DNA of 50,137 bases from positions 1 through 50,137 of the forward strand of contig JAZDJT010000006.1 in assembly GCA_043803845.1 (NCBI GenBank), read 5' to 3'. Shown here one piece after another: positions 2,596 to 24,759 of the stretch. Under the pieces are notes generated by a model that did no database searches, was not told where the DNA came from, and worked only from the letters and a program-made list of their open reading frames with translations. How positions within the stretch are numbered: the first letter of the stretch is position 1; each line of letters begins with the position of its first letter. The DNA comes from Patescibacteria group bacterium. Its GTDB lineage: Bacteria; Patescibacteriota; Minisyncoccia; Minisyncoccales; GCA-002788555. The position numbers were made by a program, and so were the translations under genes.

Positions 2596-3105
2596 ATGGA
2601 TAACATAGAGGCGGAAAATATCTTAAAGGGTAAAATAGCCGAGGTTTTGGTTGAGGAGTTGTTGAGAAGATGCAGGAATAAGGTTTATCGGTTTGGCAAC
2701 GGAGAGATTTTAAAAAACTTGTCACAATCAGAAAAATTTTTTGACAGAGAGGGCGGAATCGGCAGAAAAATTTCTTCCATTCCTGACTTTTTGGTAACCA
2801 CAAAGGAAAGGAAAATCTATTTCTTAGAAGTGAAATTCAGAAGCGATCCCGAGGCCTTAGAAGAAGAGCTTTTGCTGGAGAAAGAAATCATTGAAAAAAT
2901 CTGGAAAGCAAAGATAGTTTTGGTAACCTCGAAAGAGAAACCCTATTTCCGGGTTCTGATACCGCCTTACTTCGCGAAAGAGAAAAGAGAAGGTTGGCCG
3001 ATTCCAGTTTTGAACTGGCTGCCCTTGGAAGACGATCCGGACCTCAATGTGAAATCAAAAGTTCTCAAGGAGTTCAATGAACTTATAGAAAAGTATTACA
3101 GATAA
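2596..3105 (+). CDS. Hypothetical protein, possible PD-(D/E)xK nuclease-fold protein
   Basis: 169-aa ORF. GKIAEVLVEELL...(SIPDFLV)...YFLEVKF gives an E...D...E-x-K spacing like Hjc/YraN-type nucleases. This rests on motifs only. Confidence 0.35.
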   Translation: MDNIEAENILKGKIAEVLVEELLRRCRNKVYRFGNGEILKNLSQSEKFFDREGGIGRKISSIPDFLVTTKERKIYFLEVKFRSDPEALEEELLLEKEIIEKIWKAKIVLVTSKEKPYFRVLIPPYFAKEKREGWPIPVLNWLPLEDDPDLNVKSKVLKEFNELIEKYYR

Positions 3106-3118
3106 AAAAGTATCTCTC

Positions 3119-3643
3119 ATGGAAAAAGGGATTTTGGACCCAAGGCTTCATCGCGTTTCGTCCACAGCTATTATTCATAAAAATGGCAAGTATTTAATAG
3201 TAAAAAGATCTCCAAAAGTAAAAGCTTTTCCCGTCCAGTGGACTGTTCCTGGCGGTGGATTAGAAGTGGAAGATTATATTAATACCCCCAAAACTACTTC
3301 GGATTCCTGGTATTTTGGAGTAATTAATTCTTTAAAAAGAGAAATACGAGAAGAGGTGAATCTTGAAATCAAAGATTTAAGATACCTTGTTGATATAATT
3401 TTTATTCGGCCAGATAAAATACCGGTTATAGTCTTAAGCTATTTTTGCCAATGGAAATCTAGCAAGGTAAAGCTTAGTGATGAACACACAGATTATGCCT
3501 GGGTGGATTGTAAGGAGGCGAAAAAATATAATCTCATTTCCGGAATCCTTGAAGAAATAGAACTTGCCGATAAAATTTTAAAGGGAGAAAAAATTGACGA
3601 AAATAACATGATTGAAAAATTTAAAAAGAGATATGGAGTATAA
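3119..3643 (+). CDS. NUDIX hydrolase
   Basis: 174 aa. The Nudix box elements are GGGLEVED ... REIREEVNL, with an unusually long spacer between the G and REx2EE parts. Confidence 0.8.
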   Translation: MEKGILDPRLHRVSSTAIIHKNGKYLIVKRSPKVKAFPVQWTVPGGGLEVEDYINTPKTTSDSWYFGVINSLKREIREEVNLEIKDLRYLVDIIFIRPDKIPVIVLSYFCQWKSSKVKLSDEHTDYAWVDCKEAKKYNLISGILEEIELADKILKGEKIDENNMIEKFKKRYGV

Positions 3644-6089
3644 TCATCGAGAAATTGAAAAAAATTGGCAGGAATACTGGCAAAAAGAGGGATTTTATAA
3701 GGGGGAAGATTTTTCCAAAAAGAAGAAAAAATATATTTTAATCGAATTCCCTTATCCCTCCGGCGCGGGACTCCACGTCGGCCATGCCAGGAGTTATTCG
3801 GCTCTTGATGCGATAGCCCGTAAAAAAAGAATGGAGGGTTATAACGTCCTCTTTCCTATTGGATGGGACGCCTTCGGACTACCTACCGAAAATTATGCCT
3901 TAAAGACCGGCGTTCACCCGAGCGTTGCCACCGCCAAAAACATAGAGAACTTTAAAAGGCAGTTGAAAAGCTTGGGACTCTCTTTTGACTGGTCTCGCGA
4001 GATAAACACGACCGACCCCAAATATTACAAATGGACGCAGTGGATTTTCTTGAAGCTTTTTGAGAAGGGTTTAGCCTACCAAGCGGAGATACCTATAAAT
4101 TGGTGCCCGTCTTGTAAGATTGGATTGGCCAACGAGGAGGTTCTCGAGGGAGAGTGCGAGCGCTGCCATACTAAGACGGGTAAAAAAACGATAAAGCAGT
4201 GGATGTTAAAGATAACCGCTTATGCCGATAGGCTGATAGATGACTTGGGAAGCGTTGATTATCCGGAGAAGGTGAAGAGTCAACAGAAAAATTGGATTGG
4301 CAGAAGCTACGGTACCGAAATAGACTTTAAAGTAGAAGGATCTTCAAAAATCATTAAGGTTTTTACAACCAGGGTCGATACCATTTTCGGAGTGACGGCG
4401 GTTGTTTTGGCTCCGGAGCACGCTTTGGCTCAAGAATTAATCACCAAAGAAAATGAAGGGAAGGCGAAAGAATACATTGCCGCCGCCAGGGGAAAGAGTG
4501 ATTTTGAAAGAGAAAAGGCAGGAAAGAAAAAAACCGGTGTTTTCACCGGCTCCTATTGCCTGAATCCCGTTAACTCGAAAAAGGTACCAATATGGATAGG
4601 GGATTACGTTCTCGCTTCTTACGGCGGGGGAGCGGTGATGGTGGTTCCGGCGCACGACAGGAGAGATTATGACTTTGCTAAAATATATAAATTGCCGATA
4701 GTCAAAGTAATAGTCCCACCTGAGGTCATGTCTCATCCTTTTCAAAGATCGGCTGGGATTTGGGGTAAATCAGAATCAGATTTAGAAAGTGAATGCTGGG
4801 AAGGGGAGGGGAAATTAATAAATTCCGATCAGTTCGACGGGTTGTCTTCAGAGGACGCGATAGAAAAAATAAATCAATGGGTAGAGAAAGATAATTCCGG
4901 AGGGAAAGCAACCCATTATAAATTTAGGGACTGGGTTTTTTCGCGTCAGCATTATTGGGGTGAGCCGATACCGATTATCCATTGCCAAAGATGTGGTACG
5001 GTTGCGGTGCCAGAAAAAGATTTGCCGATTGAGCTTCCCTACATAGAAAAATACCAGCCGACGGGAACTGGAGAATCGCCTCTGGCAGTAATAAAAGAGT
5101 GGGTCAATACAAAATGCCCGAAATGTGGAGGACCAGCCAAAAGAGAAACCGACACGATGCCTAACTGGGCGGGTTCCAACTGGTATTATATGCGTTATAC
5201 GGACGCACACAATGATAAATCTTTGGCCGATAGAAAAAAACTGGATTATTGGATGCCGATTGACTGGTATAACGGCGGATTCGAACACACCACCTTACAT
5301 CTTTTGTATTCTCGTTTCATCTATAAATTCCTTTTCGATATTGGAGTCGCTCCGCAGAGTGAACCCTATAAAAAAAGGACTTCTCACGGAATAGTTTTGG
5401 CGGAGGACGGGAGAAAAATGTCCAAATCTTTCGGTAACGTTATCAATCCCGATGAGATTGTCGAAAAATACGGCGCGGATACTTTGAGATTGTACGAAAT
5501 GTTCATGGGACCTTTTGAGCAAGCGATATCCTGGAGCGCCAGCGGAGTCAGAGGCGTCTGGAGATTTATTGAGAGATTAATCAGTCTTTTTGAAGAGACA
5601 CTCGGCAAAAAGAATAGCAGTAAAGAAATTCTTAGTGCCGTTAACAAATTAAATAAAAAGGTAGATGGAGATTTAGAATCGATGAAATTTAATACCTCGG
5701 TGGCCGGCTTTATGGAATTTTTGAATCTTTGCATTGAAAAGAAAAAAGACGTCGGGAGGGATGCCATTGAAAGATTCCTGTTGCTTCTCGCGCCCTTTGC
5801 ACCGCACATCGCAGAAGAGCTTTGGCGCAAGCTAGGTAATCAAAAAAGTATTTTTGGCCAAGATTGGCCACATTATGACAGCAAAATAATCAAAGAAAAA
5901 TTTGTTACGATGATAGTTCAGGTTGACGGAAAAGTTCGAGACAAGATAAGAATCACTCCAGAAATTTCAGAGAAAAAAGCCAAAGAGATTGCGCTTTCCA
6001 GCCCAAGAGTTAAAAAATGGATAAAAGGCAAGGAGGTCAAAAAAGTAATCTCTGTTATACCAAAGTTAATCAATATAGTTGTAAAATGA
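3633..6089 (+). CDS. leuS: Leucyl-tRNA synthetase
   Basis: It has the class I HIGH variant (HVGHARSY), KMSKS, and Zn-binding CPSC...CERC, with the MEYNHREIEKNWQEYW N-terminus typical of LeuRS. The ORF is open from 3612; I chose the ATG at 3633. Confidence 0.95.
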   Translation: MEYNHREIEKNWQEYWQKEGFYKGEDFSKKKKKYILIEFPYPSGAGLHVGHARSYSALDAIARKKRMEGYNVLFPIGWDAFGLPTENYALKTGVHPSVATAKNIENFKRQLKSLGLSFDWSREINTTDPKYYKWTQWIFLKLFEKGLAYQAEIPINWCPSCKIGLANEEVLEGECERCHTKTGKKTIKQWMLKITAYADRLIDDLGSVDYPEKVKSQQKNWIGRSYGTEIDFKVEGSSKIIKVFTTRVDTIFGVTAVVLAPEHALAQELITKENEGKAKEYIAAARGKSDFEREKAGKKKTGVFTGSYCLNPVNSKKVPIWIGDYVLASYGGGAVMVVPAHDRRDYDFAKIYKLPIVKVIVPPEVMSHPFQRSAGIWGKSESDLESECWEGEGKLINSDQFDGLSSEDAIEKINQWVEKDNSGGKATHYKFRDWVFSRQHYWGEPIPIIHCQRCGTVAVPEKDLPIELPYIEKYQPTGTGESPLAVIKEWVNTKCPKCGGPAKRETDTMPNWAGSNWYYMRYTDAHNDKSLADRKKLDYWMPIDWYNGGFEHTTLHLLYSRFIYKFLFDIGVAPQSEPYKKRTSHGIVLAEDGRKMSKSFGNVINPDEIVEKYGADTLRLYEMFMGPFEQAISWSASGVRGVWRFIERLISLFEETLGKKNSSKEILSAVNKLNKKVDGDLESMKFNTSVAGFMEFLNLCIEKKKDVGRDAIERFLLLLAPFAPHIAEELWRKLGNQKSIFGQDWPHYDSKIIKEKFVTMIVQVDGKVRDKIRITPEISEKKAKEIALSSPRVKKWIKGKEVKKVISVIPKLINIVVK

Positions 6090-20107: not shown

Positions 20108-22648
20108 ATGGACAAGCGCTATCAATCAAAAGAGATAGAAAAAAAAATATATTCTTTTTGGGAGAAGAACGGTTTTTTTAATCCCGACAACCAAGACATA
20201 AAGACAAAAAGTAAAAAAACTTTTTGTATTTTAATGCCGCCGCCCAATGCTAATGGCCCTTTGCACATAGGTCATGCCGTTTTCGTTACCATTGAGGATA
20301 TCTTGACTCGTTTCTGGCGAATGAATGGTGTTTCCGCACTCTGGCTGCCGGCTTTTGACCACGCTGGTTTCGAAACGCAAGTGGTATTCGATAAAAAATA
20401 TCCGTTGGTCGTCAGGGAACTTAAAAGGGAAGAGCTTTTAAAAAAAATCTGGGATTTTACTCAGGGAAACAAAAAAATTTGCCGCGAGCAACTGAAAAGC
20501 CTTGGCGCTTCAGCCGACTGGTCGAGAGAAAAATTCACACTCGATAAGGAGATTGTGGAGACTGTTTATGAAACTTTTGAAAAGCTATACAAGGACAAGC
20601 TTTTGTATAGAGGTGAGAGGATAGTTAATTGGTGCACCCATCATCAAACTTTTCTCTCCGAATTGGAGGTAAGACACAAGGAAGTTGATGGAGTCCTTTG
20701 GTATGTTAGATATAAACTCAAAACACCGAGCGCTAAAACTAAATATATTATCGTAGCCACAACGAGACCGGAAACGATTTTGGGAGACACCGCTGTTGCC
20801 GTTAATCCCGGGGATAAAAGATATAAAGGTTTAATAGGGAAAACTGTTATTGTTCCTTTGGTTAATCGCCGGGTTCCTATCGTCGCCGACAGAGCGGTTG
20901 ATAAAAAATTCGGAACCGGCGCTGTGAAGATTACCCCCGCCCATGACTCTAATGATTTTAAAATCGCCCAGCGAAACAGTCTGCCAAAAATCGAGGTTAT
21001 CGATAAGACAGGCAAAATAAAGGCTTTTGGCGATTCGGAGTCGCTATCGAACAAATTTATAGGGTTAAAGATATCAGAAGCACGAGACGAAGTTATCAAG
21101 GAGTTGAAAGAGCTAAATCTTTTAGAGAGAGAAGAACCATATCGGCACACCATCGGAGTCTGTTATAAGTGCGGCAGGTTTGTAGAATATCTGCCGTCTT
21201 CCCAGTGGTTTATTAAAATTAAACCATTGGCCGAAAAGGTAATCAGAATTGTAAAAAAAGATAAAATTAGATTTCATCCTAGGCACTATAAAAGAATCTT
21301 TCTGAACTGGATGAAGAATATCCGTGACTGGAACATAGGACGCCAAATCATCTGGGGAATAAGGATGCCCGTCTGGTATAGAAAAATCGAAAAAAATAAT
21401 CCGAAAGTCTGGGATGTCAAAATATACGGTGAGGATATTTTTAGAGCGATTTTAGAGGGTACAAAAAAAATAGAAACCCGAGCCGGAAGGAAAAAGGGAG
21501 AAAGCAAATACTGGGGTGATTTTCAGGCAGGGGATACCATCGATTTTTATTTAGCCGATGAGAAAACAGACGCAGTAAATACTTCTATAAAACCAGTAAG
21601 AAAGATTGTAAAAAGAGTTTCTCATTATAAAACGATTAATGATTTATTTAAGATTTATTCTCCGGAGTTGGATTATCCTGGTAAGACGGCAGAGGATATA
21701 AAAAATTGGTGGAAAGGTCACCCCACTCTTCACGCTCGTATAAAAGAATACGGCATTTGGGCGATTGAGTTAGCTGATAGTTTTGACGTAGATGAGGTCT
21801 ACGTCGGAAAAAACCCTCCCGACGGCTTAACTTGGCGGCAAGAAAACGATGTTTTCGACACATGGTTTTCTTCGGGACAGTGGCCGTTTGCCGTCCTGGG
21901 TTATCCCGACGGCCGAGATTTTAAAAAATTTTATCCGACATCCGTGATAGAAACTGGATGGGACATTTTATTTTTTTGGGTGGCGAGAATGATAATGCTT
22001 TCTCTGTATCGAACCGGCAGAATACCTTTTCGCGATGTTGTTCTGCATGGCCTCGTCAGAGACAAAGACCGACAAAAAATGTCGAAATCAAAAGGTAACG
22101 TGATTGACCCCCTGGCGGTTGTGTCCGATTACGGAGCCGATGCTCTGCGCATAGCGCTGGTTTTCGGAACCTCTACCGGTTCGGATGTGATAATCTCAGA
22201 AGAAAAAATTAGGGGGCAGAGAAATTTTACCAATAAAATCTGGAACGCCAGCCGCTTCGTGATGATGAATCTGAAAGAAGATTTTAAACCCCAAAATGTG
22301 AAACCAAAATTAACCAGTAAAGATAAATGGATTCTAGGCGAGCTGAAAAAGACCATTCGAAAAATTACCCTCTCGATTAAAAGTTATCGATTTCATCGCG
22401 GAGCCGACGAGGTTTATCAGTTTTTCTGGCACAAATTCTGCGATAAGACTATAGAAGACTGCAAGAAAAGGATTTTTGAGTCAAAGACCGAAAAAGAAAA
22501 AGAGACCCCACGCTGGGTTTTATGGACTGTTTTATACCAATCCTTAAAAATTCTTCATCCTTTTATGCCATTCGTTAGCGAAGAGATATATCAGAAATTG
22601 CCATCAAGGCCAAAGATTGCATTAATTATAGAAGAGTGGCCGGGATAG
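20108..22648 (+). CDS. valS: Valyl-tRNA synthetase carrying an inserted ASCH/PUA-like domain
   Basis: Has PPPNANGPLHIGHA (HIGH), TTRPETILGDTAVAV, KMSKSKGN and DVFDTWFSS. About 156 codons lie between WGIRMPVWY and DVFDTWFSS (see findings). Confidence 0.95.
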   Translation: MDKRYQSKEIEKKIYSFWEKNGFFNPDNQDIKTKSKKTFCILMPPPNANGPLHIGHAVFVTIEDILTRFWRMNGVSALWLPAFDHAGFETQVVFDKKYPLVVRELKREELLKKIWDFTQGNKKICREQLKSLGASADWSREKFTLDKEIVETVYETFEKLYKDKLLYRGERIVNWCTHHQTFLSELEVRHKEVDGVLWYVRYKLKTPSAKTKYIIVATTRPETILGDTAVAVNPGDKRYKGLIGKTVIVPLVNRRVPIVADRAVDKKFGTGAVKITPAHDSNDFKIAQRNSLPKIEVIDKTGKIKAFGDSESLSNKFIGLKISEARDEVIKELKELNLLEREEPYRHTIGVCYKCGRFVEYLPSSQWFIKIKPLAEKVIRIVKKDKIRFHPRHYKRIFLNWMKNIRDWNIGRQIIWGIRMPVWYRKIEKNNPKVWDVKIYGEDIFRAILEGTKKIETRAGRKKGESKYWGDFQAGDTIDFYLADEKTDAVNTSIKPVRKIVKRVSHYKTINDLFKIYSPELDYPGKTAEDIKNWWKGHPTLHARIKEYGIWAIELADSFDVDEVYVGKNPPDGLTWRQENDVFDTWFSSGQWPFAVLGYPDGRDFKKFYPTSVIETGWDILFFWVARMIMLSLYRTGRIPFRDVVLHGLVRDKDRQKMSKSKGNVIDPLAVVSDYGADALRIALVFGTSTGSDVIISEEKIRGQRNFTNKIWNASRFVMMNLKEDFKPQNVKPKLTSKDKWILGELKKTIRKITLSIKSYRFHRGADEVYQFFWHKFCDKTIEDCKKRIFESKTEKEKETPRWVLWTVLYQSLKILHPFMPFVSEEIYQKLPSRPKIALIIEEWPG

Positions 22649-22671: not shown

Positions 22672-23656
22672 ATGATTTTTGGCCATCGGAGACAGTTAAA
22701 AGTCCTATCCTGCCTTTTAAGGAAGGATTCCTTGCCACACGCGATATTATTTACAGGTCCTTCTAAGATTGGTAAAAAAACAATTGTTCTGGAAATCGTG
22801 CGATACCTCTGCCATTCTCCTAAAATTAATGAGAGTTTTTTTGATTTTCTCAAAAGAGATTGCGATTGCCACAATTGCGACTTGATTAAAAGCGGCAGAT
22901 TTCCCGGTGTTTTAAAGGTGGAAAGGGATGAAGATTTCTCCATAAAAAAAATCAGAGAGATTAGAGAACAAATCATCCTCTCTTCGGTCTATCCTTATAA
23001 AATTGTTGTTTTGGACAATATAGAAGGACTTTCTCGTGAGGCTACGGGTGCCCTACTAAAAATGTTGGAAGAGCCGCGAGGTAAAACTGTTTTCTTCCTG
23101 ATAGCGAAATTTCCTCATCTTCTGCCCAGGACCATTCTTTCTCGATGCGAAGCAATAAGATTCTATCCGCTGTCGAGAGAAGACATGAAAAAATTTATCG
23201 AGGCGGAGATAGGAAAAAACAAACTAAAAGTTCCTAGCCAAGAGCAGAGTAGAATTTTAGACTTTAGCATGGGTAGACCGGGCTTGACTCGAGAGCTTTT
23301 ACTTGACAAAAGATTATTAATTTGGTATAATTTATTTCTGGAGAGTGTGATTGGGATAAAAAAGTCTTCTTTATTTGAAAGGATGATGTTGGCGGAAAGG
23401 TTAGATAAGGAACGTGAGATTGATGACTTTCTTTTTTTTTACCGAGTATTATTTTCGAGACGTTTTAGCGACAAAAAAAGAAGTCGATAAATTATTTTTA
23501 GAATCCTCAAGGAAGGAATTGAAGAGAGAATCAGATTCTTTTTCAGAAAGGGAATTAAAAAAAATCATCAAGGATATACAAAAAACAAAAAAACATTTGT
23601 TTTTCTCTAATATCTCTCCACGTCTGGCAATAGAGAATTTTCTTTTGGGTATTTAA
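22672..23656 (+). CDS. holB: DNA polymerase III delta' subunit, reading frame broken at a T9 run
   Basis: The N-terminal ORF (22672-23490) has HAILFTGPSKIGKKT, LLKMLEEP and SRC motifs. The frame +2 ORF (23414-23656) supplies a plausible C-terminal domain ending RLAIENFLLGI. The two frames meet at T9 23432-23440. Confidence 0.8.
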
Positions 23657-23667
23657 GATTAACAATT

Positions 23668-24759
23668 ATGTTTAAAGAAATCGGTTGGGCAATATTGTGT
23701 TTTTTTATCGCTTACCTGGCTTTTGAGGGAGTATTTTATTTATTGGAAAAAGATTATGGCATAAAATTGCCCATCGCCGAAGAATTCTTTTTGTCTTATG
23801 ACGGTGGTGATGAATGGCTAGCGATAGAAGTACCGGACAATAAGGTAGTAACCAGCGGTGCCCTATCTTTTGACCCAGAAAACCCCCAGAGGCTTTATTT
23901 GGCTTCGCCGCGCGGCATTTTTTACAGGGACGAGGGTAGCAAGACCAAATTTCAAAAGACAGAGGCAAAGTTCGAGACAGAAAACGCTCCTCTTTTGATT
24001 TCTCAGACCATCACTTCGCCGCACAGCGATGAGACGATTTATATTATCTCTGAAGACATAGAGAGAAATAAGGTTTTGGTCTCTTATAATAAAGGGGAAA
24101 TCTTTCGGCCGATCTTCATCTCTCAGATAGATGACAAAATCTCGGCCTTCTCGGTTGATCCTTTTTATCCCAACGTTCTTTATGTTGGCACAAGGCTCGG
24201 CAACTTTCTAAAAAGCGAGGATTTCGGCAATTCTTGGGGGCAAAAGGACAACTTTATCCAAGAAGTGGGTCAAATCTCTCCAAATCCGCACACAAGAAAT
24301 GAGATTTATCTCTTACTTTCAAGAAGAGAAAGAGATCTTTATGACTATTACTCTCAACTTATGCCTTCAAAAATCATGGTAAGTATTAACGGCGGCACTA
24401 AATTTAGAGAACTCTCTTCGAAAATCGTTATGCCCGAGACAAGAAAAATAGTTTTTGATCCAATTATCAATAGAGTTTATTTCTTTTCCGATCTATCTCT
24501 TATTAGAAAGGAAGGTGAAAAAATTAAGATTGTGAATGTGGTAAAGCCATCTTTCGATAATAAAATTAAAAGCTTTACAATCGACCCTCAAAATTCTAAT
24601 ATATTATACGTGGGAGCTGACAATTTGATTTATAAATCGGAAGACGGAGGGAACAACTGGCAGATAATAGAATCACCGGTAAGAGGCGACGTCAAAGAAA
24701 TAAAGATTAATCCCGAAGATTCTCAGACTCTCATTATCTCAATCGAAAAAACTTTGTAA
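23668..24759 (+). CDS. Membrane-anchored BNR/Asp-box repeat beta-propeller protein
   Basis: Has an N-terminal TM helix and repeated S-x-D-x-G-x-x-W-like boxes (SYDGGDEW, SEDFGNSW, SINGGTKF, SEDGGNNW). Confidence 0.6.
   Translation: MFKEIGWAILCFFIAYLAFEGVFYLLEKDYGIKLPIAEEFFLSYDGGDEWLAIEVPDNKVVTSGALSFDPENPQRLYLASPRGIFYRDEGSKTKFQKTEAKFETENAPLLISQTITSPHSDETIYIISEDIERNKVLVSYNKGEIFRPIFISQIDDKISAFSVDPFYPNVLYVGTRLGNFLKSEDFGNSWGQKDNFIQEVGQISPNPHTRNEIYLLLSRRERDLYDYYSQLMPSKIMVSINGGTKFRELSSKIVMPETRKIVFDPIINRVYFFSDLSLIRKEGEKIKIVNVVKPSFDNKIKSFTIDPQNSNILYVGADNLIYKSEDGGNNWQIIESPVRGDVKEIKINPEDSQTLIISIEKTL

Follow-up and report, generated by a model that had tools for sequence, protein, structure and literature searches.

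The valS locus and its synthetase

The DNA analysed here (the window) is a stretch of 50,137 nucleotides from a Patescibacteria group bacterium. Its valS gene encodes a valyl-tRNA synthetase (ValRS; P0001) that carries a predicted ASCH domain, a PUA-like fold, where its closest relatives have a zinc knuckle (Table 1). The genome of origin comprises 434.8 kb in 40 contigs and is 82% complete. The valS protein scores above the cut-offs of two NCBIfam equivalogs, NF004349 (892 bits, cut-off 704; E=4e-268) and TIGR00422 (873 bits, cut-off 612; E=2e-262), and these scores, together with its HIGH and KMSKS motifs and the editing motifs of connective peptide 1 (CP1), place it among the valine–tRNA ligases. 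We take TTRPET and GTGAVKITPAHD to be editing motifs from established knowledge of ValRS. Both equivalog matches are split in two, leaving a gap at about residues 428 to 575.

The full-length AlphaFold2 model has a predicted local distance difference test score (pLDDT) of 87.7, and its top match in the PDB is the ValRS–tRNA complex of Thermus thermophilus (1GAX_A; Z 42.8, root mean square deviation (r.m.s.d.) 2.2 Å over 685 residues). A Pfam scan of the protein did not find the C-terminal tRNA-binding arm PF10458. Genes for tRNAVal(GAC) and tRNAVal(UAC) lie on contig C33 of the same genome. No second ValRS scored over the cut-off in the 434.8 kb available, and the idea that a second enzyme had freed valS for a new role was rejected, there being no other match in the genome. 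The valS product is the sole ValRS of this very small Patescibacteria genome and is apparently functional.

The CP3 zinc knuckle is exchanged for a larger cassette

The initial annotation had placed 156 codons between WGIRMPVWY and DVFDTWFSS, which is exact, and the peptide it quoted for positions 21422–21772 reads as written, from I439 to L555. The conserved WY of the left border is closely followed by the ASCH domain and this in turn by a hairpin lacking Cys. The site corresponds to the connective peptide 3 (CP3) subdomain of class Ia synthetases. In the nomenclature of isoleucyl-tRNA synthetase (IleRS), CP3 is the connection between CP2 and the latter half of the Rossmann fold, and in some species it bears a zinc motif (PMC7191050). 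All of the closest ValRS backbones (65–70% identical, ~712 residues) have a CxxC..CxxC knuckle of 29–37 residues here, whereas residues 425–580 of the window enzyme contain no Cys at all; the knuckle that had been expected, and reported as missing, is indeed absent.

Since the nearest backbones carry a Cys4 knuckle at the same site, the change is the replacement of a cassette rather than an insertion into the active site. The domain had been described as inserted into the catalytic core of ValRS. It does lie within the enzyme, between the two motifs, but what has been exchanged is a zinc-knuckle cassette in the surface CP3 subdomain of the Rossmann fold. In the full-length model the ASCH domain is suspended between strands 422–426 and 562–566, with its secondary structure unchanged from that of the isolated-domain model.

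Nor is the knuckle universal in ValRS. Among 105 close relatives with readable motifs, 87 have the Cys4 knuckle, 13 a short hairpin without Cys and 5 a long insert. In the 13, which have no insert, the hairpin (EIYVG..PP.G.GW.QD; 21–30 residues) stands alone. G+C content at third codon positions (GC3) is 0.35 in the cassette and 0.43–0.45 in the flanking parts of valS, a difference of about two standard errors and a weak hint of foreign origin. Repeats of the kind that a mobile element would leave were looked for at 21250–21980; the matches were all short and none of them brackets the cassette. Two further ValRS of the short type (P0086 and P0097), both close to the window enzyme, have a CP3 segment of 105–108 residues with a different Cys-poor insert, which starts KTSVGS.

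The nested domain is a predicted ASCH domain

Fold and sequence comparisons agree that residues 431–558 are a predicted complete ASCH domain, PH0355-like and of the 'GKER' octapeptide group. The AlphaFold2 model of these residues, built on 23 homologous inserts, has a mean pLDDT of 95.6. In a Foldseek search of the PDB its 27 best matches were all ASCH or ASCH-like proteins, the first 19 with a probability of 1.00. The best was PH0355 (2Z0T; E=2.5e-7, template modelling (TM) scores 0.69/0.80, 24% identity), followed by PF0455 (1s04), AF2351 (2kku), an Enterococcus 'activating signal cointegrator' protein (3iuw), ZmASCH (5y6b), YqfB (9kyf), TTHA0113 and TRIP4. The model of the same protein in the ESM Atlas gave ASCH clusters as the structural neighbours of residues 432–559, with TM scores of 0.65–0.70. 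The AlphaFold and Foldseek check proposed in the initial annotation thus comes out in favour of its ASCH/PUA-like assignment, as do the profile searches and octapeptide described below.

A profile of the inserts run against PDB sequences retrieved 2z0t (E=8.6e-5), 1s04 (2.4e-3) and 1xne (5.4e-3). An exhaustive HMMER search with the insert among 1.84 billion representatives returned only 21 proteins, some of them small and stand-alone, and three of the stand-alone matches (P0042, P0033 and P0035) exceed the gathering scores of Pfam ASCH, so the insert is linked to the family transitively. Aligned with hhalign, the nested inserts match the stand-alone ASCH proteins with a probability of 99.8% (E=3.6e-28, 111 columns). 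Moreover, G451-T-K-K-I-E-T-R458 conforms to the octapeptide G-x-K-x-x-[ET]-x-R.

The simplest check that had been suggested, hmmscan against PF04266, failed: neither residues 420–585 nor the whole protein matched Pfam ASCH at E≤1, and deeper methods were needed. PF04266 also found nothing in a six-frame search of the genome, an NCBIfam scan of the insert gave no ASCH match, single-sequence phmmer against the PDB returned a spurious 14-bit match only, and a feature-based ESM Atlas search yielded no usable match. Close stand-alone relatives score 15–33 bits on Pfam ASCH, on both sides of its 21.2-bit cut-off, and the PF04266 profile is hence too narrow for this subfamily.

Homologues of the insert occur in 22 other ValRS clusters (E=1e-20 to 1e-49), and the segment is thus no accident of the reading frame. 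Their alignment of 128 columns contains 16 invariant and 17 near-invariant positions. K453, E456 and R458 are among these: the Glu and the Arg never vary across the 23 ValRS, and conservation of the Lys is at least 90%. Identity to the window enzyme is 37–63% in the insert, compared with 41–63% overall; it is higher in the insert for most pairs and the insert is, on average, the more conserved part. Conservation and model together indicate an ASCH domain that is folded and probably under purifying selection. The nested domains have a median isoelectric point (pI) of 9.0 and a net charge ranging from -4 to +14.

Distribution and lateral exchange of the cassette

Genomes of 21 species, with labels such as Staskawicz-, Lipton-, Komeili-, Kuenen- and Berkelbacteria, hold the same cassette. 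In an even set of 400 genomes representing the phylum, relatives of the domain occur in 27, mostly as stand-alone genes of 114–146 codons, and none was seen among the sampled genomes of the window's own order or class. Seven matches in this set lie in long frames. Six are class I aminoacyl-tRNA synthetase genes (one ValRS, two leucyl-tRNA synthetases (LeuRS) and three enzymes assigned to class I only); the seventh encodes 406 residues. The insert is therefore a rare, unannotated variant of ValRS rather than a widespread known form. The initial annotation would have given way to a common, already annotated connective-peptide variant, and none was found: long inserts occur in just 5 of the 105 close ValRS and in none of the sampled genomes of the same order or class.

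A tree of ValRS backbones, built with the insert columns removed, requires at least five changes of insert state. The window enzyme, P0002, P0009 and P0012 each stand alone among ValRS without the insert, behind well-supported branches. Eighteen carriers of the long type group together; because long-type ValRS without the insert are not in the sample, this clade is no proof of a single origin. Long-type ValRS with the PF10458 arm carry the same ASCH domain as the short-type window enzyme. A tree of the domain alone places the copies nested in ValRS in one clade (Shimodaira–Hasegawa approximate likelihood ratio test 98), in which short-type cassettes nest among long-type ones. The nearest relatives of this clade are stand-alone ASCH proteins of 114–146 residues from the same phylum.

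The exchange is most readily appreciated by comparing two contigs of separate samples, L040 (encoding P0012, 843 residues) and L041 (P0056, 723 residues; valS at 3001–5172). To either side of the cassette the two proteins are almost the same, and the DNA matches exactly or almost exactly over kilobases (0–3 mismatches per 100 nucleotides), with the same neighbouring genes, yet L040 has the ASCH cassette at 1700–2200 where L041 has a CxxC..CxxC knuckle. The breakpoints fall at the IRIP.WY and NDVFDTW codons. A pair that differs in the cassette alone points to lateral exchange by homologous recombination at the two conserved motifs. The P0012 allele is known from a single Logan contig, and an assembly chimera is an unlikely source of it. 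Taken with the trees, the pair indicates that the cassette was acquired laterally and passes from one valS gene to another through recombination at the flanking conserved motifs. Phage relatives were not found by tblastn against 50,697 phage records.

A different position is seen in the ValRS of a Candidatus Liptonbacteria genome (P0015, L012). This enzyme retains the CP3 zinc knuckle, and its homologous ASCH domain (58% identical, residues 510–636) is shifted downstream by about 25 residues, to a site between ..TLGWP and YHPTS. The second insertion site means that ASCH either entered ValRS more than once or moved within it.

Downstream of valS, positions 22672–24759 of the window hold a holB-like gene (DNA_pol3_delta2) and a gene for a BNR/Sortilin-repeat protein. 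Both follow valS in the same order in L040 and L041; synteny at the locus thus holds with and without the cassette.

Other domains nested in synthetases

Some ValRS with the cassette hold further domains in the same loop: a serine hydrolase, another ASCH domain, or a histidine phosphatase in one or two copies. In P0024, for example, the CP3 loop contains a tandem of two distinct ASCH domains (residues 448–574 and 576–663), the second of which matches Pfam ASCH at E=6e-11. More distant ASCH domains occur at other positions in further class I synthetases of Patescibacteria (Table 1). The IleRS of the window's own genome (contig C39, L042:223–3705, 1161 residues) contains a nested His_Phos_1 domain, the only one in the genome (residues 495–662, L042:1705–2208; E=6e-30), just before its DVWFDS motif and hence at the site equivalent to the ValRS cassette. 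Finally, the ESM Atlas neighbours of the ASCH domain include fusions with a cytidine deaminase, a NUDIX or a HAD phosphatase domain.

Table 1. Features of valS in the window and class I synthetases elsewhere that hold more distant ASCH domains (positions prefixed with L refer to other loci).
Feature	Residues	Position	Strand	Remarks
valS		20108–22648	+	One open frame, 846 residues; sole valyl-tRNA synthetase found in the genome; short type, without C-terminal coiled coil
HIGH motif	H53–H56	20264–20275	+	Intact; H53, G55 and H56 invariant in the ValRS alignment
CP1 editing motifs TTRPET and GTGAVKITPAHD	218–223 and 269–280	20759–20947	+	Intact; Pfam editing-domain match
WGIRMPVWY	416–424	21353–21379	+	Conserved left border of cassette; equivalent motif is the left breakpoint in the L040/L041 pair
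CP3 cassette	425–580	21380–21847	+	156 Cys-free codons; at the site of the relatives' zinc knuckle of 29–37 residues
Predicted ASCH domain	431–558	21398–21781	+	AlphaFold2, Foldseek, profile and hhalign evidence
ASCH octapeptide, 'GKER' type	G451-T-K453-K-I-E456-T-R458	21458–21481	+	Conserved across 23 ValRS
CP3 hairpin remnant without Cys, EVYVG..PP.G..W.QEN		21794–21847	+	Accompanies the ASCH domain; strand 562–566 in the full-length model
DVFDTWFSS	581–589	21848–21874	+	Conserved right border of cassette; equivalent motif marks the right breakpoint between L040 and L041
KMSKS motif	657–661	22076–22090	+	Intact
ValRS with ASCH near residue 215 and His_Phos_1		L030:121–4068
Class I synthetase with N-terminal Ham1 domain and ASCH		L031:2523–5873
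LeuRS with serine hydrolase and ASCH		L033:1507–4965
LeuRS with ASCH		L034:2059–4830

Possible roles of the nested domain

A recent preprint describes ASCH proteins as erasers of N4-acetylcytidine (ac4C) in tRNA. All 19 proteins tested there, of both the Thr octapeptide type (YqfB) and the Glu type (TthASCH, EOLA1 and TRIP4), are reported to remove ac4C from tRNA in vitro, and in TthASCH, EOLA1 and TRIP4 the octapeptide Lys and Glu are essential for this reaction (bioRxiv 10.64898/2026.02.27.708502). Nucleic-acid binding varies widely among them. Some bind tRNA strongly, stand-alone cores are active without needing to bind RNA, and one core does not bind tRNA (bioRxiv 10.64898/2026.02.27.708502).

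As the Lys-Glu-Arg pocket needed for hydrolysis of ac4C is kept in the nested domain, the domain would most likely bind or de-acylate a cytidine-type base. By analogy with these enzymes, we give roughly even chances to the proposal that it is functional and directed at cytidine, most probably as an amidohydrolase of the N4-acyl-cytidine type, with ValRS holding it near tRNA. The synthetase would still charge and edit as usual. The nested ASCH would be a selected working module and not a spacer, and its tether to ValRS would raise the local concentration of tRNA, or of nucleosides derived from RNA, around it. The long-frame carriers in the 400 genomes favour a link to translation, six of the seven being class I synthetases.

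Several observations weigh against this proposal. Two proteins of the GKER type, ZmASCH and TRIP4, are inactive on free ac4C (bioRxiv 10.64898/2026.02.27.708502). Neither of the ac4C writers, TmcA (acetyltransferase domain PF13718) and TmcAL (PF05636), was found in the window's genome, at its 82% completeness, or in the genomes of five further carriers, in a search where control genomes gave the expected matches, which makes erasure of the cell's own ac4C doubtful. Cytidine deaminase and uridine/cytidine kinase were likewise not found in the window's genome, at the same completeness, and hence a nucleoside-salvage route is not evident. Near-identical strains differ in the presence of ASCH and most relatives lack it, so the domain is dispensable for ValRS. 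Its different positions in P0015, in LeuRS and in other ValRS argue against a precise geometric role towards bound tRNA. Moreover, the span of net charge from negative to strongly positive means that the nested domains share no uniform RNA-binding surface.

A non-catalytic role has to be weighed against this amidohydrolase proposal. The initial annotation had suggested that the domain could contribute to recognition of tRNA or to the sensing of its modification. As a PUA-like RNA handle, the domain could do no more than bind RNA, for instance tRNAVal at its acceptor arm, its D arm or a cytidine of the CCA end, and aid capture or positioning of the tRNA on a minimal ValRS. Such a handle would fit the strong tRNA binding of some ASCH proteins, the basic median pI of the nested domains, their association almost only with class Ia synthetases and the lack of the PF10458 arm in short-type ValRS. 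Long-type enzymes that possess this arm carry the same domain, however, which means that ASCH is not compensating for a missing arm. The varying insertion sites and the activity of stand-alone cores without RNA binding count against a handle too, and pure binding would not require catalytic Lys, Glu and Arg residues that are invariant or nearly so. We regard a handle as possible but rather doubtful. It is less probable, and in our view unlikely, that the domain is a YqfB-like amidohydrolase for nucleoside or nucleotide house-cleaning or salvage, hitch-hiking in a permissive loop of an essential, always-expressed protein with no link to charging. YqfB-type and many GKER proteins do hydrolyse free ac4C (bioRxiv 10.64898/2026.02.27.708502), and presence or absence at the level of strains is typical of accessory metabolism. 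Also in keeping with this reading are the structural neighbours joined to cytidine deaminase, NUDIX or HAD phosphatase domains, and the further enzyme domains that synthetases of this group harbour in nested or fused form: histidine phosphatase (such as the His_Phos_1 domain of the IleRS), serine hydrolase and Ham1. Against it, six of the seven long-frame carriers in the 400 genomes are class I synthetases and no other type of housekeeping carrier was seen there; a cytidine kinase or deaminase that could use the product was not found in the incomplete genome.

The domain might also serve no purpose of the cell, as a neutral or selfish passenger that spreads by recombination between two conserved stretches of an essential gene. 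The clean exchange at conserved motifs between near-identical genomes, the patchy distribution and a GC3 slightly below that of the rest of the gene are what a passenger would leave behind. It would not, however, be expected to keep the ASCH signature under strong purifying selection in hosts whose backbones are only 41–63% identical, and the cassette has neither flanking repeats nor a nuclease or recombinase, nor relatives among the 50,697 phage records; related stand-alone genes are moreover conserved in the phylum. We consider a mere passenger highly improbable. A broader idea takes the ASCH, histidine phosphatase and serine hydrolase domains of Patescibacteria ValRS, IleRS and LeuRS together as built-in repair or de-modification modules that act in cis on tRNA or aminoacyl-tRNA and are exchanged between strains under conflict-driven selection. 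Such modules might strip from tRNA bases or from the aminoacyl moiety the acyl groups put there by host, phage or competitor toxins. We think this speculative and quite unlikely, if slightly less so than the passenger.

Novelty and significance

Aminoacyl-tRNA synthetases are among the most conserved enzymes, and discussion of the extra domains that they accrete usually centres on eukaryotes. The initial annotation knew of no ASCH domain in a synthetase, and a literature search for ASCH in synthetases and for synthetase insertions in Patescibacteria (the candidate phyla radiation) bears this out, having found no paper that describes the layout. The ValRS-nested ASCH is thus a real, rare and laterally exchanged variant whose domain architecture is undescribed in the searchable literature.

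That a bacterial ValRS has given up a structural zinc knuckle in favour of an entire enzyme-type domain, and that near-identical strains differ in this cassette alone, marks the CP3 loop as a site where domains are swapped in among organisms whose genomes are the smallest. An ASCH domain built into a tRNA-handling enzyme is also a natural test case, both for action of the family on tRNA in vivo and for its substrate where none of the known ac4C writers is present. If the domain is active, tRNA charging would be linked with the de-modification or repair of RNA; if it is inactive, it would be a clear example of passenger domains in the essential genes of reduced genomes.

Comparison with known systems

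The core of the window enzyme is 41% identical to T. thermophilus ValRS (1GAX) and shares all catalytic and editing motifs with it and with bacterial ValRS in general. It differs from them in about 160 residues that have no counterpart and in lacking both the CP3 zinc knuckle and the C-terminal coiled coil. A precedent for a class Ia synthetase with an extra enzyme domain is NCBIfam NF040702, 'isoleucine--tRNA ligase, N-acetyltransferase domain-containing', although both the enzyme family and the synthetase are different from those described here.

Among ASCH proteins, the archaeal PH0355 (2Z0T), PF0455 (1S04) and PF0469/PF0470 (1XNE) are the closest by fold and profile, sharing the domain size and helix-rich C-terminal half of the nested domain. 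To our knowledge, none of them has an assigned function. They are free-standing proteins of ~110 residues. Two segments are additional in the nested domain, one reading GR.KG.GKYWGDF and the other a hairpin, LADEKTD.. (10 residues). Profile comparison further shows that the invariant K467 and W469 of these segments are absent from the stand-alone relatives.

TthASCH (TTHA0113, 2DP9), EOLA1 and the ASCH domain of TRIP4 have the same G-x-K-x-x-E-x-R octapeptide and match the fold from Foldseek rank 19 down. They are only 10–16% identical to the nested domain and are found free or in a co-activator rather than in a synthetase. Escherichia coli YqfB (9KYF/9KYH) shares the ASCH fold (E=8e-4) and has its octapeptide at the same position, but with Thr in place of the Glu of the nested domain (GKTR rather than GKER). 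Its TM scores are 0.46–0.58, and it acts mainly on the free nucleoside.

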